This document shows positions 35,801 to 57,249 of a stretch of 64,000 bases of DNA, one piece after another. The notes beneath the pieces were generated by a model that saw nothing but the letters and a program-made list of their open reading frames with translations, made no database searches and was not told where the DNA came from. The stretch's first letter is position 1. The number at the start of each line of letters is the position of its first letter. Source of the DNA: an uncultured bacterium (GTDB lineage: Bacteria; Eisenbacteria; RBG-16-71-46; CAIMUX01; VGJL01); NCBI GenBank assembly GCA_964575675.1, contig CAZNRY010000002.1, positions 2,187 to 66,186 of the forward strand, in the 5' to 3' direction. The position numbers and the translations under genes are program-made.

Positions 35801-36148
35801 GGGCGCGCCGTCGGAAGGACCCCGGCCGGGCAGCTCCAACGAGAAGGTCCGGCGTCGGTTCTGGGGTGGGCCGCCGCGGCGCGGCGCGTGCGAACGAAAC
35901 GCGGGGAGTCGATGCTCTTCCTGACGCTGGAAGACGAGACGGGCCTGGCCGAGTGCACGCTCTTCCCGAGCGTGTACGCGCGGTACGGACACCTCGTCCG
36001 GGCGGGGGGCGTGCTGCGTGCAACGGGGAAGGTCGAGGCGCCCTACGGAGCCCCGACCCTCAACGCGGCGCGCATCGAGTGCATCGATGCTGGATTTGGC
36101 AGGGCGGCAGATGCGCCGCCCGAGACTAGCGAAGCCGCAGGAGCTTGA
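32876..36148 (+). CDS. dnaE2: Error-prone DNA polymerase DnaE2/ImuC-like (Pol III alpha family, with PHP, polymerase core and OB domains but no tau/beta-binding C-terminal tail).
   Basis: PHP motif ALALTDRDNLYG. Polymerase core blocks FQLESPGMRNLL, LIRPGP, YAFCKAHASGYGVLAYQTAYLKAHHP. A C-terminal OB fold is present. ~1090 aa, the typical DnaE2 length. The start is set at ATG 32876; the track start (TTG 32834) lies inside the promoter/palindrome. Confidence 0.8.
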   Translation: MGLQRCPKGPGPLPVPLVVRSAFSLGRGASASGALLARARGHGFDALALTDRDNLYGAISFLARAEDAGLHPVLGAEVTPRAPNPQRAVDPPCEEGIRGGGRGPCGARGSAVLLIREPAGYASLCRILTARRLAPGFVLEDAVARWSAGLVVLAREASLLERLHPALAPGTLYAAIIRPAPSISDERCLREAARRLGRPLLGTLDVYFAGREEWETHRVLAAIRELEMVTRLDAAALAPRSAYLAGAAEIFELFADQPSLLIAARELAFSCHFSRGDLPSPGTLFPKLPLPPGETAYDRLYRMTQEGLRRRYDRVTREITRRLASELEQIDTMGFTDYFVVVGGICTAARARGIPTVGRGSGASSLVSYLLGITNVDPLRYRLTFERFFHRLRRDLPDLDIDLCWRRRDEVIRHVYETYGADRVAMISTHNRYQSRGAFREAGKALGMTADQLEPIARAIPSFSDAPLAEAARSTPVGRRFDLSEPPLPEVFAAGDRLTGLPHSLGIHCGGIVIGPGPLDQWVPLETATKGIIVTQYEMHAIEAVGLVKIDLLGNRAISTIAETIDGIAGAGDAPPDLARLPDPDAATGRMLARGDALGCFQLESPGMRNLLRMLETSDLDGTIAALSLIRPGPAGSGMKERFIRRARGLEATSYLHPSLEPLLATTHGILLYEEDVICVASAIGGFDRALGDLLRRAIASAMAVSSDPALGERPSGGGPAGPDDPWRGGTIREIENRFIACAVRNGVDADVARQVWCELARFGSYAFCKAHASGYGVLAYQTAYLKAHHPGPFYAALLNNHQGMYPLCVHVADARRHGLRLALPCVHRSAPEWSWEGGSLRCGLAQVKGLSRRTLEAIAAERRRAPFDEMDDFMSRTGASAAEAVSLVLCGALDSVGAGPRPARLWRLQCRARVSARALGPTPRLGLGGGVEQGGEPPWREFELEERVAHEMETLDVALSAHPVALVVRRLARAGRAVGRTPAGQLQREGPASVLGWAAAARRVRTKRGESMLFLTLEDETGLAECTLFPSVYARYGHLVRAGGVLRATGKVEAPYGAPTLNAARIECIDAGFGRAADAPPETSEAAGA

Positions 36149-39100
36149 CGCTTCTTTCGCCGGCGGCGGATCTGAGGCGCGCCCAGTAAACGCCCGCGGG
36201 GGCGGGGCGTCCATCCTCGTCGGTGCCGTCCCAGACCTGCTGTCCCGCGCCGCGGGCGCGCCTGCGGGACGGGAGGAGCGTGCGAACGAGGCGGCCCGAG
36301 ATATCGTAGACCGCTAGATCGCTGTCGCCCGCGCGGGGTAGAGACCAAGAAAGCCCCACGGTCCACGAGAACGGATTGTCGCTCGCCCGGAGGTCGAGGG
36401 CGAGTCTCGGCCCCGAGCGAACTCCCGTCCAGGGGCCGGCGAACTCACCGCCGGCATCCTCGATCCAGTAGAGATAGACGGTTCCCGCGGCCGCGGATGG
36501 GTCGCGGAAGCGGTAGTCGAGCCCGCCAGGGTCGTGGGGAAGAACCGGATCGCGCGAGACGAGAATCGCGTCTGCGCCCGGACGCGGCGAACCGTCGAGA
36601 ACCGTCGGCGCCTCCCTCCAGAGGCGATACGCGCCGCCGGCCCGGTCACTCGGCACGGACCAGCGGAGTTCGAGGGCATCCGGCAGCTCAAAGATCACCC
36701 AGCTCGCGACGGCGACCGGCGTGTAGTCGCCCTCGTAGTGCCAGCTCACCGTTCTGACCCGCACGTCCCAGCTGCGCTGATCCCTGCTGTCGGCGAACGC
36801 GTAACGGATTCGTCCCGCGTCGGCAGCCAGGTTGCCCTGGAGTGTGGCTATCTTCCCCCCAAGAATGCTGACGCTGTAGGGGGCGCCGATCCGGTTGGCG
36901 CGGGCATCGAAGCGCTGCGCGATCACGCGCGCGGAGTCGGCGGAGGTATCCCAGTACGTCACGACGAATCGTCCATCCGGGGCCATCGCCACGCGCGGGT
37001 ACTTCATCCCGGCCGATCCCCCTCCGAGCTGGAAAAACGTTGGTTCATCCGATCGGCCGCCGCCGCTCTTCGCGCTGGGAAGAACGACGAGCAGGCCAAC
37101 GACGCCGCCCCCTGTGTATGGCTCTTCGTCCCAGACGACGACGTAGCGATCGGCCTGGGACGCGACATCGGGATTCGATTGGACGACCGAGCCTCCTTCC
37201 TCAGGGATGCTGATCGGGATGTTTGGCCCGATCTTCGTTCCCGTGGGCCCGATCCTCTGGGCGTAAACGTCAAAGTTGCCCATCCGGTCGTCGAGCCAGG
37301 CGATGACGGTCTCTCCGCCTTCCCCGGAGGAGATGGCGGGGCTGATCTGGGTGGCGCCCGCGTAAGCGCTATCCGCGATGCGGATCGTGTCGCTGTCGGC
37401 CGAGCCATCGACCAGAAAGCGCTGCGCGTAGACGTCCCCGGCGCTGAGCAACGTGCAGGTATCCCACCAGGCCAAGTAGAAGCCGCCGTCCCTCGTGGCC
37501 GCGAAGGCGGGTTGCCCCTGGATGCCCCCGCCGCAGGCGGAGGAGACGAGCGTGTTGCCGCCCACCGGCACGCCGGTCGGATCGTAGATCTGAACCATGA
37601 CCCTCTGGCCGCCGGCGAGAAGCGCCGTCCAGGCTGCGACGAGGGAACCATTCATGGTCGCCCCGAGCGCGGGTCTGTTTCGGATCAAGTCGCGCATGTT
37701 GTCCGCCGGCGCACTGGATGCCCCGCCGCTGATGTCACTGATCCGGAAGGACCCGCCCGCGGGGCGCCCTTCCGCGTCGAGATACGCCCCATAGATCCCC
37801 ATCGTCCCCGAACGGAAGTCCTCCCAAACGACCGCGCCGCGATGATCGGGTAACAAAACGACATCGGGGAATGCCTGGGTCGATGTCCCATCCTTCGGAT
37901 CGAGCGGGGTCGGTGCGCTGAGCGGGTGGCCTTCTGCATCCGCCGTGAGTTGGAAGAGCAACTCCCAACCCTCGCGGGCATCTGACCAGACAAGGCGCGC
38001 GGGCGTTGTGGAGCCGGGTAACAGCGCGAGGTGCCGCGGCGTGAGAGTCTGCCCCGGCGGAGGCGTCGGGTCGTCGACAACGACAATCGACCCGGCCGCG
38101 GTCGAGGGGAGAACCACCTTCCTGGCATGGAAGCGTGCGCTTTGTGCAGGCCCGGCCGTCCAGACGACGAGAACGGAAGTTCCGTCGATCGCAAGCAGCT
38201 CGGGGCCGCGCGGCGTGACGGTCTCCTCTTCGCTCGATATCAAGAAGGATGGCGCCGCGGGGTTCAGATCCGCGTCGAGAAGACGACCGGCGAGGCTGAC
38301 CTCGCCGGAGAGACCTCGTGTCCAGGCGACGAAATAGCCCCCCGTCACACGAACGATTGCCGGCTCCTTCTGGATGACGAGAGGGTCGGATTCGACGATC
38401 CTCGCCTCTGCGATCGCATGGCCGTCCCGATCGAACGCGCGTACTGAGACGCGCGCTGGATCCTGCGAGTCACCCGACCAGGCGACGACCCAACCTGCGG
38501 CCGAAGCGGCCACACGGGGATCGCTCTGCACGTCCTCACCGCCGGGGTCGAGAGAGAAGTTCGAGAGAACCGGTTCGAGGGAAGCGGTGAGGACCTGGCC
38601 CCGCGCCTTCCTGAGCGGGGAGTCTCCTTCCGTCCAGACAATCAGGGCACGATCGCCGGAGACCGCGATGTGGGGAGTCCTCTTGGTGCTGTAGGGACCT
38701 TCCTCGGTCACGACGATCGGGCCAGCGATGATCCCGTCTTGATCGACCAGGGCGGCCCGAACCTCCGGGTGGCCCTCCCGCGAATCGACCCATGTCAGGA
38801 TCGATCGACCGTCGGCAAGCGAGGCGAGGAAGGGCTCGGAGACTTGCTCCGCGTTGACGTCGAAAGAGAAAAGCCCGTAGCCGTCGGTGACCGGCGAGGC
38901 CGGGCCGAGCGGCTCATCCTGAGAGTCGAAGGACCGCACGAAAATCGAACCATACCCCGTGCAGAAGTCGATCCAGGCGGCGGTCCAGGAAGCGTCGGAG
39001 TGAACGGTCGCGGTTCCGTCGCGCTGGTACTCTTGCCCGACCGTCTCCTCGTGGACTCTCCATTCTTCCGGCGGATTCGAAACGGCCGAGGTAGCGAGAA

Positions 39101-39149
39101 TGAACGAGGCCAAGAAGGCAAGGCAGAGGATCGGGCTGAGCGCTCTCAC
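36126..39149 (-). CDS. Large secreted protein (1007 aa) with signal peptide and a T9SS-type (Por_Secre_tail/FlgD-Ig-like) C-terminal sorting domain.
   Basis: N-terminal signal peptide MRALSPILCLAFLASFILATSAVS. C-terminal DLAVYDISGRLVRTL...VWDGTDEDGRPAPAGVYWARLRSAAGERSVKLLRLR matches the T9SS type-A CTD pattern. It converges on and overlaps the dnaE2 3' end by 23 nt. Confidence 0.7.
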   Translation of the reverse strand: MRALSPILCLAFLASFILATSAVSNPPEEWRVHEETVGQEYQRDGTATVHSDASWTAAWIDFCTGYGSIFVRSFDSQDEPLGPASPVTDGYGLFSFDVNAEQVSEPFLASLADGRSILTWVDSREGHPEVRAALVDQDGIIAGPIVVTEEGPYSTKRTPHIAVSGDRALIVWTEGDSPLRKARGQVLTASLEPVLSNFSLDPGGEDVQSDPRVAASAAGWVVAWSGDSQDPARVSVRAFDRDGHAIAEARIVESDPLVIQKEPAIVRVTGGYFVAWTRGLSGEVSLAGRLLDADLNPAAPSFLISSEEETVTPRGPELLAIDGTSVLVVWTAGPAQSARFHARKVVLPSTAAGSIVVVDDPTPPPGQTLTPRHLALLPGSTTPARLVWSDAREGWELLFQLTADAEGHPLSAPTPLDPKDGTSTQAFPDVVLLPDHRGAVVWEDFRSGTMGIYGAYLDAEGRPAGGSFRISDISGGASSAPADNMRDLIRNRPALGATMNGSLVAAWTALLAGGQRVMVQIYDPTGVPVGGNTLVSSACGGGIQGQPAFAATRDGGFYLAWWDTCTLLSAGDVYAQRFLVDGSADSDTIRIADSAYAGATQISPAISSGEGGETVIAWLDDRMGNFDVYAQRIGPTGTKIGPNIPISIPEEGGSVVQSNPDVASQADRYVVVWDEEPYTGGGVVGLLVVLPSAKSGGGRSDEPTFFQLGGGSAGMKYPRVAMAPDGRFVVTYWDTSADSARVIAQRFDARANRIGAPYSVSILGGKIATLQGNLAADAGRIRYAFADSRDQRSWDVRVRTVSWHYEGDYTPVAVASWVIFELPDALELRWSVPSDRAGGAYRLWREAPTVLDGSPRPGADAILVSRDPVLPHDPGGLDYRFRDPSAAAGTVYLYWIEDAGGEFAGPWTGVRSGPRLALDLRASDNPFSWTVGLSWSLPRAGDSDLAVYDISGRLVRTLLPSRRRARGAGQQVWDGTDEDGRPAPAGVYWARLRSAAGERSVKLLRLR

Positions 39150-39363
39150 GGTTCCTCCCGAAGCGAACGCCCCGCACGGAACGCGGGGAAACCAACCCCC
39201 CCAGATCGACGGGCGATCGGTTCGATGAAACCGATCCGCCAGGACTGAGTGTAGGAACGGTCGTCCGGCTCGGGCAAGCAGAGAGTCGCCTCAGGCTCCG
39301 AGCCGCGAACGATGTGGGAGGAACGAATTACCCCCGCGCCGGCGAACCGATCTGTTCGGTGGA

Positions 39364-39951
39364 TCAGACGCCCCTGCGGGCCGCCTCGGCGAGAACTTCC
39401 GCCACACGCAGTGGGGCGTAGAGCGGCACGCCCGACTGCTCGAGCAACTCCCGTCCGCCCTCCTCCCTGTCGACGAGCGCAAGGGCGAGGACGGGGACGG
39501 CGCCCGCCGCGCGCACAGCGTCGACGGCACGCAGGATCGAGCCGCCGCGCGTGACGACATCGTCGAGCACGGCGACCCGCGTTCCCTGCGCGCAATGTCC
39601 CTCGATCTGGCGGCCGGTTCCGTGGTCCTTGGCGGCGGCGCGGACGAGAAAGCCGCGAAGGGAGTGACCGTCGCGCCGCGCCTCGAGAATCAGTCCGGCG
39701 ACGAGGGGGTCGGCCCCAAGGGTCGGACCCCCCACGGCGGTGACGCCGGCGGCACGCAGGGCCGGCCAGAGAACGGCGCATGCGGCGGACAGTCCGTCGG
39801 GATCGAGGGTCGTCTTGCGCAGGTCGAGGTAGTAGTCGCTCCACGCGCCGCTCGACAGGAGGAATCGGCCGCGCTGGAAGGAAAGAGCGAGGATCGCGTC
39901 GAGGAGCTTCTCAGGATTCGTATCCGCATCTGGTTGGGAGTGGATCGACAT
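39364..39951 (-). CDS. pyrE: Orotate phosphoribosyltransferase.
   Basis: PRPP-binding motif VAVLDDVVTRGGS and overall OPRTase pattern. Confidence 0.85.
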   Translation of the reverse strand: MSIHSQPDADTNPEKLLDAILALSFQRGRFLLSSGAWSDYYLDLRKTTLDPDGLSAACAVLWPALRAAGVTAVGGPTLGADPLVAGLILEARRDGHSLRGFLVRAAAKDHGTGRQIEGHCAQGTRVAVLDDVVTRGGSILRAVDAVRAAGAVPVLALALVDREEGGRELLEQSGVPLYAPLRVAEVLAEAARRGV

Positions 39952-40058: not shown

Positions 40059-40604
40059 CTAGCCGATCTCGCCGCCGGCCTGCTCCATCGGCTCGTCGCT
40101 CGAGCCGCTGCGGCCTCCCGAGCCCGACCCGGGGGTGATCTCGTTTCCATCACCCTGCCCTGCCGGTAGGCCGCCGGTCGCGCCTGAGTATGAGAACCGC
40201 ATCATCCCGCCCATTGGGCTCTCATTGTTGCTTGCATCGACGGCCGTCACCCTGAAGATGTACTCGGCGCCGTTGGTCCCGGTGACGGTGAGGGTGTTCT
40301 TCAACAGCAGGCCGTCACCACTCAAGCACGTGTATGAATTGCCCCGCAACGGATCGGGGAAGTAGAGATAAACGCGGTAACCGGCCAGATCCGGCTCCGT
40401 GTTCTTGTCCCATGCGAGGGCGAACTTGCCGTGCATCTGCCAGTCGATCCGAGCGCCGTTCGGGGGAGTGGGCGGCGCCTGGTCGATCGTGCCGGGGCCG
40501 AGGGGCGTATCAGAGCTGTTGCTTCCGCAGCCGCACAGCGTGGCGGCCGCGAAGACGACCATCGCCAAGATGGAAAGGCGAATCGGGTGACGGGAATCGA
40601 ACAT
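40059..40604 (-). CDS. Lipoprotein with fibronectin-III-like domain.
   Basis: Start ATG 40604 with GGAGG 8 nt upstream. Lipobox in MFDSRHPIRLSILAMVVFAAATLCGCGS. FN3-like block DLAGYRVYLYFPD...EYIFRVTAVDASNNES. The track ORF (341 aa) has a spurious upstream extension. Confidence 0.7.
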   Translation of the reverse strand: MFDSRHPIRLSILAMVVFAAATLCGCGSNSSDTPLGPGTIDQAPPTPPNGARIDWQMHGKFALAWDKNTEPDLAGYRVYLYFPDPLRGNSYTCLSGDGLLLKNTLTVTGTNGAEYIFRVTAVDASNNESPMGGMMRFSYSGATGGLPAGQGDGNEITPGSGSGGRSGSSDEPMEQAGGEIG

Positions 40605-40949: not shown

Positions 40950-43229
40950 ATGGGCCTTTCGGGTTCCTCCGCGGTGTTGCTCGCCGCGATCGCCTACGGG
41001 GCCCCGCCCGAGTTGCTTCCGCCCCTGCCGAGGGAGATCACCCCCATTGCGACGTTTGGTGAGATCGCTCCGGGCGTCTCCCATCCTGGGATCGACCTCC
41101 CGACGAATGGACGGGTCTCTCCGATCGCCGCCGCATCTGATGGGGAGATTGCGCGAGTGCGCGTTTCAGGCGGGGGATACGGGCGGGCCCTGCACCTCTC
41201 CCTGCCGGATGGCAGGGAGATCGTCTACGCGCACCTCTCTCGGTTCTCGGCGGCCGTTGAGGAATCGTGCGGGGCGATCCAGGTGCGGGGGGGCGCCTAT
41301 GAGTTGGACTGGCATCCTCCGGCGGGCCTCTTCAAGGTCCTTCGGGGCGCGCTGCTTGGGTTTTCGGGAGAGACGGAGGACGGCAGGCCGATTCTTCACC
41401 TGGAGGTCCGCGAAGGCGGGACGCCGCGGAATCCGCTGAGATCGGGCTTCCTCTGGCCCGATCGGATCTCCCCGCGGATCGAGGCCCTGCGATTCGTCCC
41501 CCTGGGCCCTTCGGCGCGCGTCAATGGACGGCTCGCCGCCTGCGACGTGGCGGTCACCCACGGCGTCGGCGCCTTCAGCGGCGTCGCGGCGGTTCTCTGG
41601 GGGCCGGTTGGTTTGATTTGTGAGAGCGCGGACGCGAGCTACGGTCAAAAATCCTCGCCGTGGCAGGTCTGTCTGGAGGTCGACGGGGTTGCGGCCTACT
41701 GCGCCGACGTGGGAATGCGCCTAGGTCCAGGCTGGAACCCCGAGCGCCCGGAGCCCGAAGCGCCGAGTCGCCTCCAACAGCGGCTCTACGACCCGATGGA
41801 GGGGGATCGGGGGCGTCTCGCCTGTGGGAGCGAACTGAAGGAGGGGACGCATCGCATCCGCATCATCTCCCGCGACGCCGCGGCCAACGCCGATACGGTC
41901 GACCTGACCGTCCTCGTTCAACCTACGCCCCGCGTGCGAGAATGGATGGCGCGACCCTTGGAGAAGAGCGCTTGGGATCTCGCGGTCCTCGTCGACCCGG
42001 TGGGCGGGGAAGATCCGGAGAGAATCCGGCTTTGGGTGGATCTAACGGAGGACGGCAGGCGCTTTCCCGTACGAACGCTTCTCGGACATCTCGGCTCGGG
42101 GTGGTTTCTCGGGGAGATTGCTCCCCTCGTGCCTGCCGGCCGAATCGGGCTTCGGGTCCGCCTGCGTACCCCCTCGGGGCTCGAGGCATGGGAAGCGGTG
42201 CAGAGCCTCGATCCGAGCGGGCTCTGCTCGGAGGCCGCTTTCGATACGCCCGTGGTCGTCGGGGCACCGCGGTGGATCACGATGTCGTGGCGGAATGGCT
42301 GCATCCCGTCCCGAGAACCCTCCGCGAGGCTCTTGCTCCGGGGCGCCGTGATCCAGTGCGCGTTCTCCGAGATTCCGCCCGAAGAGAATGACCCGCCGGC
42401 GTGGCGTTTCGCAGCGCCGGCGCGGGGTGGAGCGACCGGCGCCTCGCCGCGATTGGAACTGACCGTCGATGGAAAGCTCCACCGTTGGGATCTGCGGAGC
42501 GTCTTCCTCGCCACGCCGAGGGGCGACCTGATGTGGATCAGTCCGGACAGCGCGTTGACGCTCGAGGTGGCCGCTGGTACTTTCTACAGGCCCGTCTGGT
42601 TGGCCTGGACGCGAACCCTCATGCCCTGGGGTGGGCGGGTCCGGGACGAGGGCCGGATCATCGGCCGCTCCTGGTCCGAGCAGGACGAGGTGCTGGTCGT
42701 GCGGAGCGATGCGCATGTGATCGGGCCCGCCGGCGCCGACATGGATGGACCCTTCCGGGTCTCGCTTCGGCCCCATCGGCAACCTCAGACGGAGGAGGAA
42801 TCGCGCCGACTAAGAGTTTTCGGACGGTCCGCTCCGCTCGGCGCCTGGGAGGCCCGCGCGGGACTCTGGACGGGCAGGTCGGTCGTCGCTGTCGTGGATC
42901 GTCTAGAGGAGTGGATCATTCTCGAGGACCAATCGGAGCCGTGGATCTACGGGATGGATCCAGCGGCGGGGTCGCGGAGGAGCGGGGGCATCGCGGATCT
43001 GCGCGCAAGAATTCGCGAGGAAGGATCGGGAATCCGCGTTGACGAGTTGAAGATCCTGTTGGACGGCAAGAGAGTCCCGGCCGAGTGGAATCCCTGGTCG
43101 CGCAGCATCCGGGCAGCGGCGCCGGGAGCGATCGCACCGGGGGATCATCGCTGGGAAGTTCGCGCGACCGATGAGGCCGGCAACGAGGCGCGCCGAAGCG
43201 CCGAGTTCACACTGATCGACCGGCCATAG
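40950..43229 (+). CDS. Peptidase M23 (LytM-type) domain protein with a long C-terminal extension.
   Basis: M23 signature HPGIDLPTNGRVSPIAAASDGEIARVRVSGGGYGRALHLSLPDGREIVYAHLSRF. The start is uncertain: ATG 40950 is the first in-frame ATG preceding a hydrophobic segment. Confidence 0.65.
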   Translation: MGLSGSSAVLLAAIAYGAPPELLPPLPREITPIATFGEIAPGVSHPGIDLPTNGRVSPIAAASDGEIARVRVSGGGYGRALHLSLPDGREIVYAHLSRFSAAVEESCGAIQVRGGAYELDWHPPAGLFKVLRGALLGFSGETEDGRPILHLEVREGGTPRNPLRSGFLWPDRISPRIEALRFVPLGPSARVNGRLAACDVAVTHGVGAFSGVAAVLWGPVGLICESADASYGQKSSPWQVCLEVDGVAAYCADVGMRLGPGWNPERPEPEAPSRLQQRLYDPMEGDRGRLACGSELKEGTHRIRIISRDAAANADTVDLTVLVQPTPRVREWMARPLEKSAWDLAVLVDPVGGEDPERIRLWVDLTEDGRRFPVRTLLGHLGSGWFLGEIAPLVPAGRIGLRVRLRTPSGLEAWEAVQSLDPSGLCSEAAFDTPVVVGAPRWITMSWRNGCIPSREPSARLLLRGAVIQCAFSEIPPEENDPPAWRFAAPARGGATGASPRLELTVDGKLHRWDLRSVFLATPRGDLMWISPDSALTLEVAAGTFYRPVWLAWTRTLMPWGGRVRDEGRIIGRSWSEQDEVLVVRSDAHVIGPAGADMDGPFRVSLRPHRQPQTEEESRRLRVFGRSAPLGAWEARAGLWTGRSVVAVVDRLEEWIILEDQSEPWIYGMDPAAGSRRSGGIADLRARIREEGSGIRVDELKILLDGKRVPAEWNPWSRSIRAAAPGAIAPGDHRWEVRATDEAGNEARRSAEFTLIDRP

Positions 43230-43237
43230 CGGAAGGA

Positions 43238-44206
43238 GTGGGCATGGAGACCGGGTGGCTCGAGTTCGAGAAGCCGATCATCGAGTTGGAGCAAAAACTC
43301 GATGACCTCCGGGTGTTCGCCGACAAGGAGCACCTCGAGTTCAGCGATGAGCTCCAGAAGTTGGAGGCGCGGGCCGCCAAGCTGCGCGAGGAGACCTACG
43401 CGAATCTGACGACATGGCAGCGCGTGCAGATCGCCCGGCATCCCCGCCGGCCGTACACGATGGATTATGTACAGAGGGTCTTCACCGATTTCACGGAGCT
43501 GCACGGCGACCGGCGCTTCGGCGAAGACCGGGCGATCGTCGGTGGGCTGGCACGGTTCGAAGGGCGACCGGTAATGATCGTCGGGCATCAGAAGGGGAAG
43601 AACACCAAAGAGAACCTTCTACGGAATTTTGGAATGCCCCACCCTGAGGGGTACAGGAAGGCGCTCCGTCTGATGCACATGGCGGAGAAGTTTCGCAACC
43701 CGATCATCTGTTTCATCGACACTCCGGGGGCTTTCCCTGGAATCGGCGCCGAGGAACGCGGACAGGCCGAGGCGATCGCCCGAAACATCATGGAGATCTC
43801 GCTGATCAGGGTTCCGATCCTGATTCTCGTGATCGGCGAGGGGGGATCCGGCGGGGCGCTGGCGATCGCCGTCGGCGACGAGGTCCTCATGTTCGAGAAT
43901 GCGATCTACTCCGTCATATCGCCTGAAGGGTGCGCCGCAATCCTCTGGAAGGACCAGTCGAAGGCGCAGGAGGCGGCCGAAGCGCTCCGTTTGACTGCCA
44001 AGGATCTCGAGGCTCTGGGCGTGATTACCCGGCTCGTCGCCGAACCCCTGGGGGGAGCGCACCGAGGCGTCGATGCGATGGCAGAGACGCTTCGCGGGGA
44101 GATTCGGGCGAGCCTGGATCGGCTGACGGCGCTGCCGACGGACGACCTGCTCCGGCGGCGCCACGAGATGTTCCGGAAGATGGGGGTATTCGCGGAGAAT
44201 CGATAG
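43238..44206 (+). CDS. accA: Acetyl-CoA carboxylase carboxyltransferase subunit alpha.
   Basis: WLEFEKPIIELEQKLDDL, FIDTPGAFPGIGAEERGQAEAIARN, GEGGSGGALAI. GGAAGGAG lies 8 nt upstream. Confidence 0.9.
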   Translation: MGMETGWLEFEKPIIELEQKLDDLRVFADKEHLEFSDELQKLEARAAKLREETYANLTTWQRVQIARHPRRPYTMDYVQRVFTDFTELHGDRRFGEDRAIVGGLARFEGRPVMIVGHQKGKNTKENLLRNFGMPHPEGYRKALRLMHMAEKFRNPIICFIDTPGAFPGIGAEERGQAEAIARNIMEISLIRVPILILVIGEGGSGGALAIAVGDEVLMFENAIYSVISPEGCAAILWKDQSKAQEAAEALRLTAKDLEALGVITRLVAEPLGGAHRGVDAMAETLRGEIRASLDRLTALPTDDLLRRRHEMFRKMGVFAENR

Positions 44207-44292: not shown

Positions 44293-44493
44293 ATGCTCTC
44301 GAAGGAACTCTTGGAAATCCTCGTTTGTCCGCGATGCAAGGGAGATCTCGAGTATGACACGGAGCAACAGCGGCTCCGGTGCCATCCCTGCCGCTTGGCC
44401 TACCCGATTCAAGATGACATCCCGATCATGTTGATCGAAGAGGCAGAACCGTTCGACCCGCCGCCCTCCGCCGACTCGAAGGGAGGGTCTTGA
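44293..44493 (+). CDS. Trm112/YcaR-family (UPF0434) small zinc-ribbon protein.
   Basis: 66 aa, [14 protein letters not shown]...[20 protein letters not shown]. Confidence 0.8.
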
Positions 44494-44494
44494 T

Positions 44495-48607: not shown

Positions 48608-48793
48608 TCGGACCCGGGGGCTGGGCGGGGCGGGCGTCCAAGGGGCCCCTGCGCCTCATGCTGGCGTTGACACCTTCCGAGGCGGTTGGTAGACTCCTGA
48701 AGTTCGCGGTCGAAGAAGAATGATTCCGTCCGCACGCTGGAGGGCGCTCACAGACGCCCCGGCGAGGGGAAACCGGGAAAGGACCGAGCCTCG

Positions 48794-48889
48794 ATGGGTT
48801 GTGGGAAGAAGCGGAAGAGAAAAAAGATCGCCACGCACAAGCGGAAGAAGCGGCTCCGGAAGAACCGTCACAAGAAGCGGATTCGCTAG
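48794..48889 (+). CDS. 31-aa highly basic protein, candidate ribosomal protein bS22-like; not in the supplied track.
   Basis: ATG 48794 to TAG 48887-89 encodes MGCGKKRKRKKIATHKRKKRLRKNRHKKRIR. It resembles bS22 ([33 protein letters not shown]) of Actinobacteria/Bacteroidota. A GGAAAGGA-type purine-rich tract lies upstream, and a strong terminator lies 35 nt downstream. Confidence 0.5.
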   Translation: MGCGKKRKRKKIATHKRKKRLRKNRHKKRIR

Positions 48890-48924: not shown

Positions 48925-48964
48925 AAACTCCGGGGTCCTTCCTGAGGACCTCGGAGTTTTCGTG
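48925..48964 (+). terminator. Rho-independent terminator after the bS22-like ORF.
   Basis: 14-bp stem AAACTCCGGGGTCC / GGACCTCGGAGTTT (one G.U pair) with loop TTCCTGA, followed by TTTTCGTGCGTGTTTTCC. Confidence 0.7.
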
Positions 48965-49000
48965 CGTGTTTTCCGGTGGTCCCGCGTTGGATTCGGCTTC

Positions 49001-51100: not shown

Positions 51101-51522
51101 GTTGGGACGGCAAGAGCGACCGCCGGCGCCATCGTCGGGCAGGGATCCGCATTCGGAGCGAGTTCGGGGACGCGAGTTCTCCCACGTGGGTCGAGACCGT
51201 GGACTTCAGCGCCGGAGGGTTCTCTTGCTGGATGAACCACCCGGTGCAGCCGCTGACAAAGTTGGCCCTTCAGTTCGACTTCCCGCCGTTCGGGACCGAA
51301 GACAGCCGGACGGTGAGCTGCGAGGCAGTTGCAGTCCGCTGCGAGAAGTCCCCGCAGCCGGAGCACAGCTGGACTGTTGCGGCCGCATTCACGGGTCTCG
51401 CCAAGTCCGACCGCGAGTTCATCGAGCGGTATGTCGACTGGCACGACGAGGTGATGAATCCGCCGCAAGCGGAGGAATCGGGCAACGAGGGGGGGGGCGA
51501 CGCGAGCGGGGAGGAGGCATGA
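51097..51522 (+). CDS. PilZ-domain protein (putative c-di-GMP receptor).
   Basis: PilZ motifs RRRHRRAGIRIR (RxxxR) and VDFSAGGFSC (D/NxSxxG). ATGA overlap with the rnr stop. Confidence 0.65.
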   Translation: MSWDGKSDRRRHRRAGIRIRSEFGDASSPTWVETVDFSAGGFSCWMNHPVQPLTKLALQFDFPPFGTEDSRTVSCEAVAVRCEKSPQPEHSWTVAAAFTGLAKSDREFIERYVDWHDEVMNPPQAEESGNEGGGDASGEEA

Positions 51523-51630
51523 TCCCCGTTCTTCGTTTGACCGCTGTTCCGAACCTCCGATAGAGTCTAGCTGGAGAGCGCGGGACCGCGGTGACGATCG
51601 GAGACGGAACCAGATCGGAGGAACCTTCGC

Positions 51631-52641
51631 TTGAATCGCCAATCGAAACGCTCACCCATTCCGGTTTGCCTCCTTCTGCCGCTCCTGCTTCTGCTCCCAT
51701 CGACCACGTGGGCGACCAAGTATGCCGCCGAGTTTCTGCGGATCGGCGTCGGCGCCCGCGCCCTCGGGATGGGGGGAGCCTTTACGGCTCTGGCGAACGA
51801 TGCCTCGGCCGCGTACTGGAATCCGGCCGGTCTGATCACCCTCGGGAACTCTGAGCTTCTCTTCATGCATGCCGAGCAATTCGGCAGTCTCGCAACGCAC
51901 GATTTCTTCGGATACGTGCAACCATTGTCGGGTGAAGGTCCCGCGCCGTCCGCGGCGGTGGGGATCTCTGTGATCCGTTACGGCGTCGATGACATCCTCC
52001 TGACGCGCGATGCGTGGGACGACCTGAACGGCAATGGCAGGCCCGATCCTGGCGAGGTCGACTCCTCGCAGTTCCGCAAGGGGAGCGACGTGGAGTGGGG
52101 CGTGTTGTTTTCCTATGCCCGCAGCGCCGGCGACCGCCTGGACCTCGGCGGCAATCTGAAGGTCGTCCGCCAAGGGCTGCTGCGGAACACGAGCTTCGGG
52201 ATGGGGGTAGACCTGGGAATCCTCTATCGTCTCAACCACGATCTGAGAATCGGCGTGCGTTTGGCTGACATCACGACGACGCAGATTTCGTGGGACACCG
52301 GCACGCGCGAGGTTGTGGCTCCTTCCATGACGCTGGGAGGATGTTGGACGCGCACGGTGCCGGGCATCAGGGGAGATGTGACGCTTTCGCTCGACCTCCC
52401 GATGACCTTCGAGGGTCGCGAGGAGGCCAGCCAGCTGAATGCGGGAAGCGTCGGTACCGATCTCCAAGGCGGACTCGAATACTGGCTTTCCCACGCGATC
52501 GCTTTCCGGTTCGGAACGTCAGCGGGGGAGTGGACCGCGGGAGGCGGACTGCGGTACCGGGGCATGGGAGCCGACTACGCTTTCCTGCCCCACGACGATC
52601 TCGGCGACACGCACCGCATTTCGGCATCTGCCCGCTTCTAG
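51631..52641 (+). CDS. Outer-membrane beta-barrel protein, PorV/LptO-like (T9SS-associated) candidate.
   Basis: Signal peptide MNRQSKRSPIPVCLLLPLLLLLPSTTWA. N-terminal motif EFLRIGVGARALGMGGAFTALANDASAAYWNPAGL, characteristic of the PorV/FadL-like T9SS barrel family. Alternating amphipathic strands run to a C-terminal aromatic residue (F). TTG start with GGAGGAA 7 nt upstream. Confidence 0.5.
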   Translation: MNRQSKRSPIPVCLLLPLLLLLPSTTWATKYAAEFLRIGVGARALGMGGAFTALANDASAAYWNPAGLITLGNSELLFMHAEQFGSLATHDFFGYVQPLSGEGPAPSAAVGISVIRYGVDDILLTRDAWDDLNGNGRPDPGEVDSSQFRKGSDVEWGVLFSYARSAGDRLDLGGNLKVVRQGLLRNTSFGMGVDLGILYRLNHDLRIGVRLADITTTQISWDTGTREVVAPSMTLGGCWTRTVPGIRGDVTLSLDLPMTFEGREEASQLNAGSVGTDLQGGLEYWLSHAIAFRFGTSAGEWTAGGGLRYRGMGADYAFLPHDDLGDTHRISASARF

Positions 52642-52902: not shown

Positions 52903-55206
52903 ATGCGCTCAGGACCCGAGAATCATGGCCCGACGCGGATCGAGCTCGCGAGCTCCGAGCTGGAGGGTGGAAGCACGATGGCCTGGGTCGACCCGCAGCA
53001 GGTGCTTGCCTGTGTCGCCCAGGTCGACTCGCGGGAGAGTTTCTCGCGGTTTCTCGAGCCGCGGCTGGCCGACATCGATTCCCCCGCGTCCGGCCCTGCG
53101 GACGATGGAACGAAGGCCTTGCCGGCTCGCGTCAGCTGTCTGCTCGAGCGGTTGCGTCAGACCCATGCCCGCCTGTTTCGAGAGAACACAGCGGCTCCTG
53201 GTTCCCAGCGGGTCATCCGACCGGTCCTAGCGTCGGTTGAAGAGGGAGCGGTCTATTTCCTGAAGGCGGCCCCTTGTTGGGTCTTTCGCGTAAGGAACGG
53301 AACGTCGGAGCTGATTCGCTCGGGTGGCGACCTGTCGGAGGGCGGCGCGGCTGACGCAGGATTCGGCCAATCGGCGCGGCTGCATCTCGCCGTGAGCTCG
53401 GTCGAGGTGCTGCCGCACGACATCGTGGTCCTCCTCGTCTCGAGTGGCGGCACGAGCCCCGACCGCCTCGCCGTCGCCGGTGTCTTCAAGGCTAACCAAG
53501 ATCTGAAGCGCGCCTGCGATGGGCTTGTGAATCTCTTCAGCCTCGCCTCCGCGGGTGTCGGGGCGGTCGCGATGCGGTTCGTCCCCGTCGGCGTGCGGAG
53601 CGGGGACGCCGTTCGCGGGATCGATCTCGTCGGCGACCTTGAGCGTGAGCTATTCGACGGAATCACGACATCGAGCGCGGCTGCACGGCCGGAGGATCCG
53701 ATGCGATCTGCCCAGGCGGCGCCTGACTCCGGCGGACTGGGGCTTGAGGAGTTCGTCCTCCCCGCGTTCCTCGAGGAGGCGGGAAATCCGTTTGTTTCGC
53801 ACCCGCCGGAAGCTCCCGGAGCGGCGTGCCCATCGCGAAGCGCCGCGCCGGCGTGGGCGGAGAGAAAGAGCGCGGAGGCTGCGGACCGAGGGCCGCTAGC
53901 GGCGGGGCCGAGCGACTCGGGGTCTGTGGAGGGGCCTGCACGGGTTGAGCCGTTCGAAGCCCAACCCCTGGCAGAGGAGCCGGAATTCGCCCCCAGCGTG
54001 GCCGCCCGATTCGAGACCGGAAGCGATCAGCTTCTCAATCAACCCTCCGCCGATCGCGTCGAGCGGTCCCTCGGTGGGATGCCACCGCGAGGAAAGAGGG
54101 TGTTGACCCCATGGGCCGCGGCTTTCGCGACGGTCCTTGCAACGTTGCTTGCGGTGGTCGGGGTGCCCCGCGGCATTCAGCTGCTTCGTGGGGGCGCAGA
54201 GCTTGCCGAAGGGGGCGTGATCCGCGTTGATCCGGTTCCGCCGGCGCGGGCGATCTTCATCGACGGGGTGGATCAAGAGACCGGATCGCCCGCCATTCTC
54301 GAAGGAGTGGCTCCAGGGGTCCGCCGCGTGCTGCTCGATCTCGGCGCATTTGGTTCGATGGAGGTCAAGGTGCGCGTGAGGACGGGGGAGACGGTCGACC
54401 TGCATCCCAGGGCGACCGGTTCGCTCGAGATCAGCGCGATCGATGCGCGCCCCCGGGCCTCGGTCTGGTTGTCCGGCCGGCAACGAATGTCCCTGCCGTG
54501 CCGGGTCGACTCGCTCCCCGCCGGATGGCAGGAGGTTCTCTACGAGGACGATCGTCTCCCGCTCTGGCAGCGGCAGGTACTGGTGCTGGCCGGCGAGACT
54601 GCGAGGCTGCGGATCAACAATGCGTTCGCGACCGACCAAGCGCTCCTTCGCGTCGAGTCTTGGTCCTACCGTCAAGGCGAGGGGCTGCACGCGGCCGACG
54701 GCGATACGGTGTTCGTCGATCGTCGTTACTTCGGCGTGACGCCGATCGAGAGGGAAGTTCCTCCCGGGCTTCACGGTGTCTGTGTCGTCGGGCGCGAGGG
54801 CTCAAGTTGGACGGAGGTGCTGAACCTGACGGCCGGAAGCAGCCGGGTCGTCGCGCCGCGATTCGGACTCGAGCCCTGGCCTCGGATCGATCATCAGGAG
54901 CCGGGCCGGATTCTGCTGCGGGGAGCGGTTCCCTTGACGGCGACCTTCACGTCGCCCGATGGCGCCCCGCCGCGCAACCCGCGCCTTCACTTCCCGGGAC
55001 TCGATGCGACCGTGCGCGATCTTCCACTTTCGCCCGTTGATCCGGAGAAGGGGATTTATGTGGGGATCGTGGATCCGCGCTGGATCCCGATGAATCAGGC
55101 CGTGGAGTACTACTTCACCGTGCAAACGACCGAGGGACAGACGCTCTGCTCGGAGCTCTACCGGTTGACGGCCGTAGGGGAGATCTCGCAAGGCATTCTG
55201 CCCTGA
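52903..55206 (+). CDS. Membrane protein with an N-terminal cytoplasmic domain of unknown function, one TM helix, and three extracytoplasmic PEGA-like repeats.
   Basis: Start ATG 52903 follows GGAGGAGG (the track start 52822 is upstream). TM segment VLTPWAAAFATVLATLLAVVGVP. PEGA-like repeats IFIDGVDQETGSPAILEGVAPGVRRV, and DGDTVFVDRRYFGVTPIEREVPPGLHGVCVV. Confidence 0.6.
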   Translation: MRSGPENHGPTRIELASSELEGGSTMAWVDPQQVLACVAQVDSRESFSRFLEPRLADIDSPASGPADDGTKALPARVSCLLERLRQTHARLFRENTAAPGSQRVIRPVLASVEEGAVYFLKAAPCWVFRVRNGTSELIRSGGDLSEGGAADAGFGQSARLHLAVSSVEVLPHDIVVLLVSSGGTSPDRLAVAGVFKANQDLKRACDGLVNLFSLASAGVGAVAMRFVPVGVRSGDAVRGIDLVGDLERELFDGITTSSAAARPEDPMRSAQAAPDSGGLGLEEFVLPAFLEEAGNPFVSHPPEAPGAACPSRSAAPAWAERKSAEAADRGPLAAGPSDSGSVEGPARVEPFEAQPLAEEPEFAPSVAARFETGSDQLLNQPSADRVERSLGGMPPRGKRVLTPWAAAFATVLATLLAVVGVPRGIQLLRGGAELAEGGVIRVDPVPPARAIFIDGVDQETGSPAILEGVAPGVRRVLLDLGAFGSMEVKVRVRTGETVDLHPRATGSLEISAIDARPRASVWLSGRQRMSLPCRVDSLPAGWQEVLYEDDRLPLWQRQVLVLAGETARLRINNAFATDQALLRVESWSYRQGEGLHAADGDTVFVDRRYFGVTPIEREVPPGLHGVCVVGREGSSWTEVLNLTAGSSRVVAPRFGLEPWPRIDHQEPGRILLRGAVPLTATFTSPDGAPPRNPRLHFPGLDATVRDLPLSPVDPEKGIYVGIVDPRWIPMNQAVEYYFTVQTTEGQTLCSELYRLTAVGEISQGILP

Positions 55207-55330: not shown

Positions 55331-55359
55331 TTGACTGAATACATGGCTCTACATATACT
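55331..55359 (+). promoter_or_regulatory. Strong sigma70 promoter TTGACT-17-TATACT.
   Basis: Near-consensus hexamers with an exact 17-nt spacer, in an AT-rich island within a high-GC intergenic region, ~80 nt upstream of ATG 55441. Confidence 0.55.
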
Positions 55360-55440
55360 TATCAGAGGTGTTCCGCACATCTCCGCCGCTTGCTCATGCC
55401 GTGCGGCGCCATGGACTTATCGCGCCGAGGAGGGCCACCG

Positions 55441-57249
55441 ATGAACGCGTTGCGCCTTGTGCTCCTATCCGGATTGCTGCTCTTGGCCGCACAGCCGCAA
55501 GCCCTGGCCGCCGAACGGCTGGGGGAGCTCAGTTCGCCGTCGGCCCTGCAGGCGATCGAGAGCGCATATGATGCGGGAGAGATCGGTCAGGCGGAGGCGC
55601 TCCTCTACAAGCTGTATGCGCTCCACCAATCGGCCCGCCTTCCGGAGAAGTACCGTGTCGCCGGGGCTGTGCCCGTGAAGTGCGGTACGCAGATCGTCCT
55701 TGAAGTGCAGGAAAGTCTCGCCTCGATGCCGGGCAAGATCGCGCAGGAAGCAGCGGCGCTGCTGGCCCGTCCGACCCTCGACTCCTACATCGACACGACA
55801 CACTTCCGCGTGCACTATGCCACCACGGGGACCGACATGGTCTCTGGCTGGCCGGACGCGACCTATCGCGACGCCGTGATGGACGCTTGCGAAACGAGCT
55901 GGGCCCTCTTCCACACCACCAACGGCTGGCCGGCACCTCCGTCCGACGGGGCCGCGGGAGGCGGAAGCGCCCTGATCGACTGCTACGTCGACGATCTCGG
56001 GACGGGCGCGTACGGCGTGACCTATTCAGAGAGCATCGTCGCCGGCGGGCATCCGTTCGACTACACCTCGTACTTCGTCATCGACAACGACTATGTCGGA
56101 TTCGGCTACGCGGACAACAAACTTCCCATGCGCGTCACGGTGGCGCATGAGTATCATCATGTGATCCAGATGGGGCTCAACGCGCAGGGCAGCGGCGGCT
56201 GGTTCATGGAGAACACAGCGACGTTCGTGGAGGACGAGGTCTACGACTCGATCAACGACAACTACAACTACCTCTCCCTCATGCTTGCCAACCCGTGGAA
56301 AGAACTGAAGACCGCCAACGGAGGGTTCGAGTACGGCGCCTTCATCTGGCCGACCTATCTTACCGAGGGAATCGGAGGGCACGCCCTCGTTCGGGACACC
56401 TGGGTCGAGTACGCGGATCTCACGAACCTCTACACCTGTTTCGATAACAATCTGGCCCCGTACGGTAAGAACCTCGACACGGCGATGGCGCAGTGGGCGA
56501 CCTGGAATCTCTTCACCTGGCTCCATGATGATGGGAACCACTACGTGGAGGGTTCCGACTATCACTACTACCAGGCCTACGACAAGAACATCACGACCTA
56601 TCCGCAGACGAACGTCCATCCGACCTCGACGAAGAAGCCGGCCGGTCTCGGCGCTAACATCACCCGTTTCGCGCGGCAGACGGGATCCACCGACAATAAG
56701 ATCACCGTCACCTACCAGGTCCTGAACGCCTGCTCGTACAATCACGTCATCTCCTTCATGCGGAAGATCGCGAGCCAGTCGGTCTGGGATGTGTGGGACG
56801 TCCCGGTCGACGCGACGGGAGCCGCCTCGTTCGAGATGACCCAGTGGGACCAGACGGAGTACATGTACATGGTCGTTGCGATGAAACGCGGCTGCGCCCT
56901 GGCGGGCACGGACTTCCAGTTCAGCGCCTCGACGACCTACACGGTTGATGTGGCCGACCTGGCCCCAACGCGTGCGCTTCGCCTCGATCAGAACAGCCCG
57001 AATCCGTTCAATCCATCGACCGCGATCCGCTTTTCACTTCCCGAGCCGGGATCCGTCCGTCTCGTCGTGCACGATGCGGCGGGGCGCGAGATCAGAAGCC
57101 TGGTCGACTCGGTCCTTCCGGCCGGCGAGCAGGAAGTGCACTGGGGCGGGACCGACGACGCGGGCCGCCTTGTAGCAAGCGGCGTCTACTTCTGCACCCT
57201 CGAGGCGAACGGAGGGAAGACGGTCCGCAAGATGATCCTGTCTCGGTAG
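55441..57249 (+). CDS. Secreted HExxH zinc metallopeptidase with T9SS C-terminal sorting domain.
   Basis: Start ATG 55441 with GGAGGAGGG upstream. Signal peptide MNALRLVLLSGLLLLAAQPQALA. Zincin motif VAHEYHHVIQMG. CTD LDQNSPNPFNPSTAIRFSLPEPGSVRLVVHDAAGREIRSL...GVYFCTLEANGGKTVRKMIL. Confidence 0.7.
   Translation: MNALRLVLLSGLLLLAAQPQALAAERLGELSSPSALQAIESAYDAGEIGQAEALLYKLYALHQSARLPEKYRVAGAVPVKCGTQIVLEVQESLASMPGKIAQEAAALLARPTLDSYIDTTHFRVHYATTGTDMVSGWPDATYRDAVMDACETSWALFHTTNGWPAPPSDGAAGGGSALIDCYVDDLGTGAYGVTYSESIVAGGHPFDYTSYFVIDNDYVGFGYADNKLPMRVTVAHEYHHVIQMGLNAQGSGGWFMENTATFVEDEVYDSINDNYNYLSLMLANPWKELKTANGGFEYGAFIWPTYLTEGIGGHALVRDTWVEYADLTNLYTCFDNNLAPYGKNLDTAMAQWATWNLFTWLHDDGNHYVEGSDYHYYQAYDKNITTYPQTNVHPTSTKKPAGLGANITRFARQTGSTDNKITVTYQVLNACSYNHVISFMRKIASQSVWDVWDVPVDATGAASFEMTQWDQTEYMYMVVAMKRGCALAGTDFQFSASTTYTVDVADLAPTRALRLDQNSPNPFNPSTAIRFSLPEPGSVRLVVHDAAGREIRSLVDSVLPAGEQEVHWGGTDDAGRLVASGVYFCTLEANGGKTVRKMILSR

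Follow-up and report, generated by a model that had tools for sequence, protein, structure and literature searches.

The window analysed here (the whole stretch of 64,000 nucleotides) is best explained as part of the genome of an Eisenbacteria-type bacterium with type IX-style sorting of proteins by their C-terminal domains (CTDs), an explanation that we consider probable and that comprises a PorU peptidase, CTD-bearing cargo, an outer-membrane barrel of the PorV family, and the juxtaposition of two gene blocks. Three proteins (a 1007-aa secreted repeat protein, an HExxH metalloprotease and PorU itself) would be exported to the periplasm by the Sec pathway; the type A CTD of each, about 90 residues long, would be recognised there, and passage through the outer membrane would be followed by processing. 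By analogy with the known systems, PorU, a C25 cysteine peptidase, would remove the CTD from all three and cargo would be handed to an anchor at the surface. The 336-aa barrel would most likely be the PorV-like, CTD-binding carrier or anchor. In the known mechanism, PorU serves as CTD signal peptidase/sortase and PorV as shuttle (Glew 2012, PMC3397888; Gorasia 2015, PMC4560394; Glew 2017, PMC5562754; Lauber 2024, PMC10994853).

The G+C content of the window lies between 63 and 70% in 2-kb steps and is about 66% overall; the nearest named relatives of its proteins are "PorU" and "PorV/PorQ family protein" of Candidatus Eisenbacteria, and its gene order agrees with that of Eisenbacteria loci. 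On these relationships the source is assigned to a Candidatus Eisenbacteria-type bacterium, affiliated with the FCB superphylum and outside the Bacteroidota, in keeping with a preliminary description of this DNA as high-GC and apparently non-Bacteroidota. (PMC13271369 treats the Eisenbacteria and the FCB phylum Joyebacterota as sister groups.) All the genes of that description were found again in their places, with scores far above chance. Rfam and tRNA scans of the 64 kb were empty. Two other ORFs are spurious: one of 232 aa (39146-39844, minus strand) overlaps pyrE and has a poor GC3 signal; one of 552 aa (60590-62248, minus strand) lies where purH is encoded on the plus strand.

The C25 peptidase is encoded on the plus strand (44495-48607 from a CTG, or 44540-48607, 1355 aa, from a GTG). 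It matches the NCBIfam PorU model NF033707 with 561.6 bits (cut-off 420) over model positions 5-1094 of 1095, and Pfam Peptidase_C25 (PF01364) with E 3.5e-86. Against the P. gingivalis PorU structure 6ZA2 it aligns (HMMER, E 6.5e-55, 189 bits) over some 775 residues, 579-1353, a span that includes the CTD of 6ZA2. The catalytic residues, numbered from the GTG, are His861 of a GHG motif and Cys895 of TASC; they lie 63.5% and 66% of the way along the protein (a dyad at about 65% had been noted before), their motifs align with the NYAGHG and ATCDF of P. gingivalis PorU, and they are kept across the clade. What had been called a PorU-like protein is thus identified, from its sequence, as an orthologue of PorU, the C-terminal signal peptidase/sortase of the T9SS (type IX secretion system). 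It shares with P. gingivalis PorU (PG0026; 6ZA2) the C25 fold, the aligned GHG histidine and cysteine, and collinearity to the C-terminus, CTD included. It differs in that pairwise identity is low, the phylum is another one, no canonical porV stands behind it, and its N-terminal part exceeds the P. gingivalis one by some 200 residues (residue 204 is where the match to NF033707 begins).

Where does PorU translation start? GTG 44540 is the first canonical start, and no signal peptide follows from it. An in-frame CTG at 44495, preceded by a GGGAGGG motif and continued by a hydrophobic stretch (both read from the sequence), would provide a plausible one (RPPQVGLALCLVLAVGLGAPGARA); PorU homologues have signal peptides, and the CTG is the probable start. 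That the signal peptide requires a CTG start counts against the favoured explanation.

PorU clusters with the PorU genes of Eisenbacteria-type loci that carry a canonical PorV, and synteny with accA is kept: the order accA-PorU is common to 15 of 80 genome loci (examples are L001, L002, L010, L012, L013, L016, L017, L029, L032 and L061). In the window, accA (acetyl-CoA carboxylase carboxyltransferase alpha; 43238-44206, plus strand; NF004344, 496 bits) is followed, immediately 5' of PorU, by the gene of a 66-aa Trm112-like zinc-ribbon protein (44293-44493, plus strand; Pfam Trm112p, 58.3 bits), which is conserved in the window's clade.

The CTDs were located with a local HMM made from the three tails themselves and run on all six frames of the window. 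Exactly three ORFs carry a type A CTD, the three for which Por_Secre_tail-type domains had been proposed; their tails align mutually and display PNP, GVYF and K..L.R motifs. The 619-aa metalloprotease (55390-57249, plus strand) has a signal peptide, an HEYHH motif at residue 253 and a match of 181.7 bits to NF045524, the MXAN_6640 metalloprotease family (cut-off 140); its CTD passes TIGR04183 (26.3 bits, cut-off 23), scores 36.4 bits with Pfam FlgD_ig, and its gene is conserved in relatives. The tail of PorU scores 122.7 bits with the local HMM at its extreme C-terminus, and 18.5 bits, below the cut-off, with TIGR04183. The 1007-aa protein (36126-39149, minus strand), like the metalloprotease a putative T9SS cargo, has a signal-peptide-like N-terminus and repeated W-x-D/E blades (read from the sequence); a PDB search returned no relative. 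Its CTD reaches 144.6 bits with the local HMM and, of the Pfam and NCBIfam CTD models, passes only the related FlgD_ig (33.4 bits, cut-off 27, residues 937-992), not TIGR04183.

Is the barrel a PorV? The 336-aa protein (51631-52641, plus strand; with signal peptide) matches the NCBIfam PorV/PorQ family model NF033709 over its full length (103.2 bits, cut-off 90), and NCBI calls its near homologues "PorV/PorQ family protein". Its AlphaFold2 (AF2) model (pLDDT 82, pTM 0.78) is all-beta behind an N-terminal segment. In a Foldseek search the F. johnsoniae PorV chains 8gl6_F and 6h3i_F come first (TM 0.67-0.70; E 1.8e-13, with TM 0.70, for the leading one and 9e-12 for the other), followed by FadL and TodX (TM about 0.5; FadL E 2e-8). 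It remains below the cut-offs of three equivalog models, which counts against the favoured explanation: PorV (NF033710, 23 bits vs 250), PorQ (NF033711, 46.5 bits vs 220) and PorV2 (NF052325, 158.7 bits vs 325, model positions 17-210 only, in the model's N-terminal half). The earlier claim of a PorV-like barrel therefore holds for family and fold, but not for identity with canonical PorV; in profile searches the C25 protein passes as PorU, while the barrel passes as a PorV/PorQ-family member and fails as a PorV. Sequence and structural model together indicate an outer-membrane protein of FadL/PorV fold that belongs to a distinct subfamily nearest "PorV2".

Comparison with F. johnsoniae PorV (6H3I_F, 8GL6_F), which has the FadL fold and, at the lateral gate of SprA, binds type A CTDs as their carrier, runs along the same lines: it is the best structural match, falls under the same family model and shares an N-terminal G-x-R-A-x-G-M-G-G-A ... 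W-N-P-A-G motif region, but structure-based identity is 16% and the PDB sequence match is not significant (E 0.42). "PorV2" is the best-scoring of the models for the barrel and its orthologues (159-192 bits), though below cut-off; together with "PorU2" (NF052324) it forms a putative second sorting pair, and the subfamily stands beside a divergent PorU-type gene in some metagenome loci. The PorU of the window, by contrast, is an ordinary one, reaching 151 bits on the PorU2 model (cut-off 450). A literature search found no paper describing PorU2 or PorV2; textual matches to these names were superscript artefacts.

The barrel might have nothing to do with secretion: it could be a FadL-like uptake channel or a general outer-membrane protein of PorV ancestry, brought near PorU as a by-product of rearrangement. 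The failed equivalog cut-offs and the FadL and TodX matches speak for this, as do a promoter-like site directly 5' of the barrel gene and the company that the barrel keeps: across Eisenbacteria it has HU, bS22, rnr and pilZ as conserved neighbours and lacks PorU among them (the linkage to rnr and pilZ being itself a point against the favoured explanation), and upstream of many subfamily members that are 35-43% identical, no PorU-type gene is found for at least 5 kb. However, by both E value and TM score the PorV chains clearly lead the structural matches, the barrel exceeds the cut-off of the curated PorV/PorQ family model, and in about ten metagenome loci of other lineages a barrel of this subfamily lies immediately behind a PorU-type gene (L110, L130, L143, L145, L146, L148-L151 and L157; in the three that were tested, the PorU model gives 406-427 and the PorV2 model 105-164). 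That placement ties the subfamily to PorU-type sortases, and we regard a role unconnected with secretion as unlikely.

The barrel begins 3.0 kb past the end of PorU, as had been reported, and bS22, rnr and pilZ lie between, all three confirmed by PDB or profile matches: 1) The 31-aa bS22 ORF (48794-48889, plus strand) matches the PDB bS22 chains 8fmw_V and 7jil_5 (E 6e-7 to 1e-6), and an ORF of 31-45 aa is kept at this position in relatives. 2) The RNase R/VacB-family exoribonuclease (48962-51100, plus strand) scores 426 bits with TIGR00358 (cut-off 368.6) and has Pfam RNB, OB_RNB, CSD2 and S1 domains. 3) The 141-aa PilZ protein (51097-51522, plus strand; Pfam PilZ 35.5 bits, cut-off 22.5) has a start that shares 4 nt with the end of rnr, stop codon included, and in about 16 loci among L081-L101 its gene is likewise flanked by rnr and the barrel gene. 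(One protein, P0098, looked like a PilZ-barrel fusion that would link the two functionally; it is a read-through artefact, with the barrel's own signal peptide in mid-chain after a low-complexity "linker".)

How did this arrangement come about? The preliminary description, taken literally, had the three genes inserted between an adjacent porU and porV, so that the barrel would be the canonical PorV orthologue. PorU and barrel do follow in order on one strand, adjacency of porU and porV is the rule elsewhere (of the 80 genome loci, at least 40 have canonical PorV directly behind PorU, usually with an M6-like protein next), and in some lineages a PorU-type gene directly precedes the window's barrel subfamily. 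The evidence speaks against the insertion, which we consider very improbable. In a neighbour-joining tree the barrel and its orthologues form a clade of their own, apart from the PorU-adjacent canonical PorVs of all phyla sampled; scores separate them too, since PorU-adjacent barrels of other loci reach 110-260 bits on the PorV equivalog against 23 for this one, to which the barrels directly behind PorU elsewhere are 21-28% identical over most of their length. The PorU of the window groups with PorUs from loci that have a canonical PorV; the divergent PorUs that are paired with the window's barrel subfamily lie outside this group. The barrel's orthologues, 46-85% identical, sit after (HU)-bS22-rnr-pilZ with no PorU upstream; rnr-pilZ-barrel without PorU is found in L082, L083, L087-L089, L098 and L101, and the block with bS22 recurs in this form in more distant Eisenbacteria-type loci.

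The separate clade and these PorU-less blocks point to PorU having been set beside a pre-existing block. Judged from sequence comparisons, then, the arrangement is a clade-specific juxtaposition rather than an operon split by insertion: accA-Trm112-PorU came to lie next to bS22-rnr-pilZ-barrel-PEGA-CTD protease-comEC, a housekeeping block that is conserved. Relatives with a PorU 50-52% identical to this one have their genes in exactly the order of the window. Elsewhere the accA-Trm112-PorU block goes on with canonical PorV and an M6-like gene. The window's cluster resembles that FCB cluster (PorU, PorV and a "T9SS-dependent M6-like inactivated metalloprotease", NF052323) in PorU lineage and in having M23, dnaE and accA genes upstream, but its clade lacks PorV, the M6-like gene and a large barrel of about 1100 aa ("BigX"), and has bS22-rnr-pilZ behind PorU instead. 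Neither the window nor L081-L083 has any of the three, and none was seen in the L084 gene list.

Sigma-70-like promoter matches are found 5' of bS22, of the barrel and of the metalloprotease gene. They suggest separate transcription units, which is another point against the favoured explanation.

A tentative, rather doubtful extension is that the FCB group holds two old parallel lineages, one PorU-PorV(-M6-like) and the other a divergent PorU with a "PorV2-like" barrel, and that in the window's clade the rnr-linked barrel replaced a departed PorV as CTD carrier. The rnr-linked barrel is up to 85% identical between loci, against at most 53% for PorU. If the idea is right, this would be a hybrid attachment module absent from the literature.

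The favoured explanation would place translocon and motor elsewhere in the genome. About 45 ORFs of the window were scanned with NCBIfam models, and part of them also with Pfam, and the 64 kb yielded no match to SprA/Sov, PorK/L/M/N, PorP, PorT, PorZ or PorQ, a lack that counts against that explanation. One could suppose instead that PorU processes CTDs although a canonical T9SS of the Bacteroidota type is missing: either translocon or motor would be reduced or of another kind, or part of the system would have been lost in this clade as PorV and the M6-like gene left the PorU locus. In addition to the empty window, this agrees with the absence of PorV, M6-like gene and large barrel from the window's clade, and with the NCBIfam and Pfam searches of the examined PorU neighbourhoods in related Eisenbacteria loci, where no T9SS core family was recognised. 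But the view takes in 64 kb here and 20-kb slices of relatives, and T9SS genes are normally scattered over the chromosome; the CTDs, like PorU and its catalytic residues, are moreover well conserved, which speaks for a working pathway. We judge the supposition to be quite unlikely. BigX, encoded behind PorU-PorV-M6-like in Eisenbacteria loci, was considered as a possible small SprA: AF2 predicts, confidently, a giant beta-barrel, and there is one weak TIGR04189 match (23 bits), with no Pfam match, no PDB sequence match and homologues all annotated "hypothetical". Three genes of about 270-330 aa between the M6-like gene and BigX matched no T9SS family.

How much of this is new? Reviews have already noted or suspected T9SS genes in FCB phyla other than the Bacteroidota (PMC11285876; PMC5837995), so the earlier remark that such systems are little characterised outside the Bacteroidota is fair as to characterisation, yet their presence is in the literature. 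The NCBI pipeline already labels such Eisenbacteria proteins PorU and PorV/PorQ. Since reviews expect the system in several FCB phyla and the pipeline names the proteins, the result, though sound, is largely what was to be expected when a known system is followed into a phylum that has been little studied, and the current picture is unchanged. The literature search found no paper linking Candidatus Eisenbacteria to the T9SS. What is added is a solid case of T9SS sorting components in that group (PorU plus type A CTD cargo) at curated thresholds, and the recognition that "PorV-like" barrels divide into two subfamilies or more, each with genomic partners of its own, which is relevant to annotating and reconstructing the T9SS beyond the Bacteroidota.

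The remaining neighbours can be dealt with briefly. Behind the barrel, in the window as in relatives, comes the gene of a PEGA-domain protein (52978-55206, plus strand; longest ORF from 52822; Pfam PEGA 29.1 bits), predicted to span the membrane once at about residues 430-447 (read from the sequence); it matched no T9SS family. On the other flank, the 181-aa ORF described as an FN3 lipoprotein (40059-40604, minus strand) looks real, with a GC3 frame signal and translation in its support and a lipobox (..ATLCGC), but the FN3 domain, discerned by eye, is not confirmed by HMM, Pfam and NCBIfam giving no match; this putative lipoprotein is a neighbour without a shown link to secretion. The M23 peptidase of the preliminary description does exceed its Pfam cut-off (Peptidase_M23, 36.9 bits vs 28.7): it is a 759-aa envelope protein without CTD (40950-43229, plus strand), whose longest ORF begins at 40431, GC3 rising only past the ATG at 40950. 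Its homologues of 762-797 aa sit upstream of accA in relatives, and in Eisenbacteria the gene is a conserved neighbour of the dnaE/accA/PorU region.

With ~66% G+C overall (63-70% per 2 kb), the window is chromosomal DNA filled with housekeeping genes: aconitase, hem genes, a two-component system, aro genes, dnaE, pyrE, accA, rnr, comEC, purC, purH and guaA. It contains every element of the T9SS-like module that the preliminary description had named. On the minus strand lie the 1007-aa secreted repeat protein (36126-39149), pyrE (39364-39951) and a putative 181-aa lipoprotein (40059-40604) that had been credited with an FN3 domain: the ORF is there, but no family model supports the domain. The M23-domain protein is on the plus strand (40950-43229, with ATG 40950 its probable start), and then come accA (43238-44206), a Trm112-like gene (44293-44493), the C25 protein (plus strand, ending at 48607), a 31-aa ORF (48794-48889) identified as bS22 by its matches to PDB 8fmw_V and 7jil_5 (E ~1e-6), rnr (48962-51100), pilZ (51097-51522), the 336-aa barrel (51631-52641), a PEGA-domain membrane protein (ending at 55206) and the 619-aa HExxH protein (55390-57249). 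No link to secretion was found for the conserved neighbours, namely the M23 and PEGA proteins, PilZ, rnr and the small lipoprotein.

That this is a non-Bacteroidetes genome, as had been proposed, is borne out by the Candidatus Eisenbacteria relatives of PorU and of the barrel, and by gene order. An NCBI contig of 69,558 bp encodes a protein identical to the C25 protein; after it the relatives drop to 48-53% identity, and the named one among these is a "type IX secretion system sortase PorU" of Candidatus Eisenbacteria/Latescibacterota MAGs; close homologues of the barrel (65-73% identity) are named [quoted passage not shown]; and the order (M23)-dnaE-accA-PorU is common to many Eisenbacteria-labelled loci. 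NCBI taxonomy lists Eisenbacteria among the candidate phyla, and they have been placed as the sister of Joyebacterota, a phylum of the FCB superphylum (PMC13271369). The lineage is therefore non-Bacteroidota, yet it lies inside a larger group where the presence of T9SS genes is expected.

The C25 peptidase, described at first as PorU-like, passes the NCBI PorU equivalog over the whole model (561.6 bits against a cut-off of 420) as well as Pfam Peptidase_C25 (E 3.5e-86). Its sole strong match in the PDB is Porphyromonas gingivalis PorU (6ZA2, E 6.5e-55, residues 579-1353), gingipains coming next at E ~1e-6. The catalytic motifs align (NYTGHGS with NYAGHGG, LTASCSVGKFD with ITATCDFANYD), and the dyad sits at 63.5% (His861) and 66% (Cys895) of the chain. 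The Cys is not invariant in our alignment of PorU homologues (A1), because Ser takes its place (TAASAVG, TAASQVG, MAASQVG) in the homologues of loci L008, L019 (Latescibacterota) and L040 (Gemmatimonadaceae), encoded at about 10000-13600 in those loci; these enzymes may have a swapped nucleophile or be inactive, or the alignment may be locally wrong. In one relative (PorU 49% identical; L085:7394-9118 and flanks), PorU has a serine recombinase and helicase/primase-like genes for neighbours in place of accA/Trm112, and so may have been relocated in that genome on a mobile element or next to one.

Where does the PorU of the window start? PorU needs a signal peptide, but translation from GTG 44540, which is the annotated start and the first canonical one, yields none. 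In the same stretch (44481-44540, plus strand) there is an in-frame CTG at 44495, two bases past the Trm112 stop and 8-14 nt past a GGGAGGG motif; started there, PorU would gain MRPPQVGLALCLVLAVGLGAPGARA, and homologues have such signals. The layout is suggestive of translational coupling and of a start at a non-canonical codon. Only three sigma-70-like promoter matches (to the consensus only) occur on the plus strand within 44.0-57.4 kb, at 48667-48695, 51537-51566 and 55331-55359, where 0.8 would be expected. One lies in each of the intergenic spaces that directly precede bS22, the barrel and the HExxH/CTD gene, a placement that fits separate transcription units rather than a single operon.

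When the three C-terminal tails were made into a profile and a six-frame ORF set of the window was searched with it, exactly three ORFs matched, the 1007-aa protein, PorU and the HExxH protein, precisely those for which CTDs had been claimed. For the HExxH protein two models score above their cut-offs, TIGR04183 (26.3 bits against 23) and the MXAN_6640 metalloprotease model (181.7 against 140); the tail of the 1007-aa protein passes Pfam FlgD_ig, a model related to TIGR04183. The PorU tail stays under the TIGR04183 cut-off, yet both the PorU model and 6ZA2 extend over it. Both the 1007-aa repeat protein and the HExxH metalloprotease carry N-terminal signal peptides.

The barrel is another matter. 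Its PorV likeness holds for family and predicted fold: it scores 103.2 bits with the PorV/PorQ family model (cut-off 90), and an AlphaFold model made with a 31-sequence alignment (pLDDT 82, pTM 0.78) finds Flavobacterium johnsoniae PorV as its best structural matches (8gl6_F, E 1.8e-13, TM 0.70; 6h3i_F), followed by FadL and TodX channels at TM ~0.5. It does not extend to canonical PorV. A scan that took a single genome for each species left 80 PorU loci; at least 40 of them (48 by a later count) have a barrel within a few hundred bases after PorU, and over most of their length these barrels are only 21-28% identical to that of the window. Drawn from Eisenbacteria-type, Latescibacterota, Gemmatimonadaceae and Bacteroidota loci, they score 187-300 bits with the PorV/PorQ family model, 110-260 with the PorV equivalog and 32-63 with the PorV2 model; for the window barrel and its orthologues the figures are 103-148, 23-56 and 159-192, the last covering the N-terminal half only of the PorV2 model and staying under its cut-off of 325. 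In a neighbour-joining tree of 81 barrels the midpoint root separates a clade of the window type from the clade that holds all the PorU-adjacent barrels, whatever their phylum. The canonical cluster, moreover, runs PorU-PorV-"T9SS-dependent M6-like inactivated metalloprotease"; neither the window nor three relatives' loci (L081-L083) contain the M6-like gene or the conserved ~1100-aa ORF that comes after it, and the gene list of a fourth (L084) has neither. Identity, model scores, phylogeny, context and the missing M6-like gene all separate the window barrel from canonical PorV.

It had been supposed that bS22-rnr-pilZ was inserted into a porU-porV pair. The barrel's place in the other clade speaks against this, and so does the existence of the rnr-pilZ-barrel block without PorU: relatives with a PorU 50-52% identical share the order M23-accA-(PAP2)-Trm112-PorU-bS22-rnr-pilZ-barrel-PEGA-CTD protease-comEC-purC, while more distant ones (barrel 46-61% identical; L082, L083, L087-L089, L098, L101) have HU-bS22-rnr-pilZ-barrel with no PorU upstream. 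The simplest reading of these gene orders is that a rearrangement in the clade's ancestor joined ...accA-Trm112-PorU to a pre-existing bS22-rnr-pilZ-barrel block. A "PilZ + barrel" fusion in the database (P0098, 532 aa, ENA; 58% identity) was rejected as a functional fusion: it reads through the pilZ-barrel intergenic stretch, leaving the barrel's own signal peptide internal.

Barrels of the window's subfamily (29-39% identity) do occur directly after a PorU-type gene, in ~10 loci of a metagenome scan (L110, L130, L143, L145, L146, L148-L151, L157). The PorU-type genes are divergent (1416-1672 aa), three tested ones scoring 406-427 bits with the PorU model, around its cut-off of 420; their partner barrels score 105-164 with the PorV2 model and at most 42 with the PorV equivalog. 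These loci seem to hold a second kind of PorU/PorV-type pair, separate from the canonical PorU-PorV-M6-like cluster. In the PorU tree the window PorU falls among those "type I" PorUs that are found in Eisenbacteria-type loci with a canonical PorV, apart from the divergent "type II" PorUs; with its barrel in the PorV2-like subfamily, the window therefore has a type I PorU alongside a barrel that is type II-like. The barrel, judged by its structural model and by these pairings, is likely T9SS-related; that the rnr-linked barrel replaces PorV as carrier in this clade strikes us as improbable. BLAST evidence for T9SS beyond Bacteroidetes was noted earlier (PMC5837995), the NCBI pipeline already gives these proteins their names, and our literature search found no paper linking Eisenbacteria with T9SS. 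The split of PorV-family barrels into canonical PorU-adjacent and PorV2-like lineages, and the mixed arrangement in the window's clade, are mildly new.

How might such a module work? In the systems studied so far, PorU is the CTD signal peptidase/sortase (PMC3397888, PMC4560394) and PorV a shuttle binding CTDs at the SprA gate (PMC5562754, PMC10994853). If homology is the guide, Sec would carry the 1007-aa protein and the HExxH protein through the inner membrane; recognition of their CTDs, passage of the outer membrane and processing by PorU would follow, with the barrel as a PorV-like carrier or anchor. The module itself is seen in its identities, motifs, fold and gene order; a translocon and motor, CTD binding by the barrel and the PorU-cargo relationship are inferred. 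Profile searches for SprA/Sov, PorK-N, PorP, PorT, PorZ and PorQ gave no match within the 64-kb window.

Two further observations concern other parts of the window. At 27530-30237 (plus strand) a DUF6754 protein (368 bits) with a signal peptide forms a trio with two multi-pass membrane proteins that have no family match; the trio recurs in a distant relative (L083:1-2492) at 35-46% identity. The aconitase (1630-4014, plus strand) belongs to the "mitochondrial type", scoring 1068 bits with TIGR01340 (cut-off 825).
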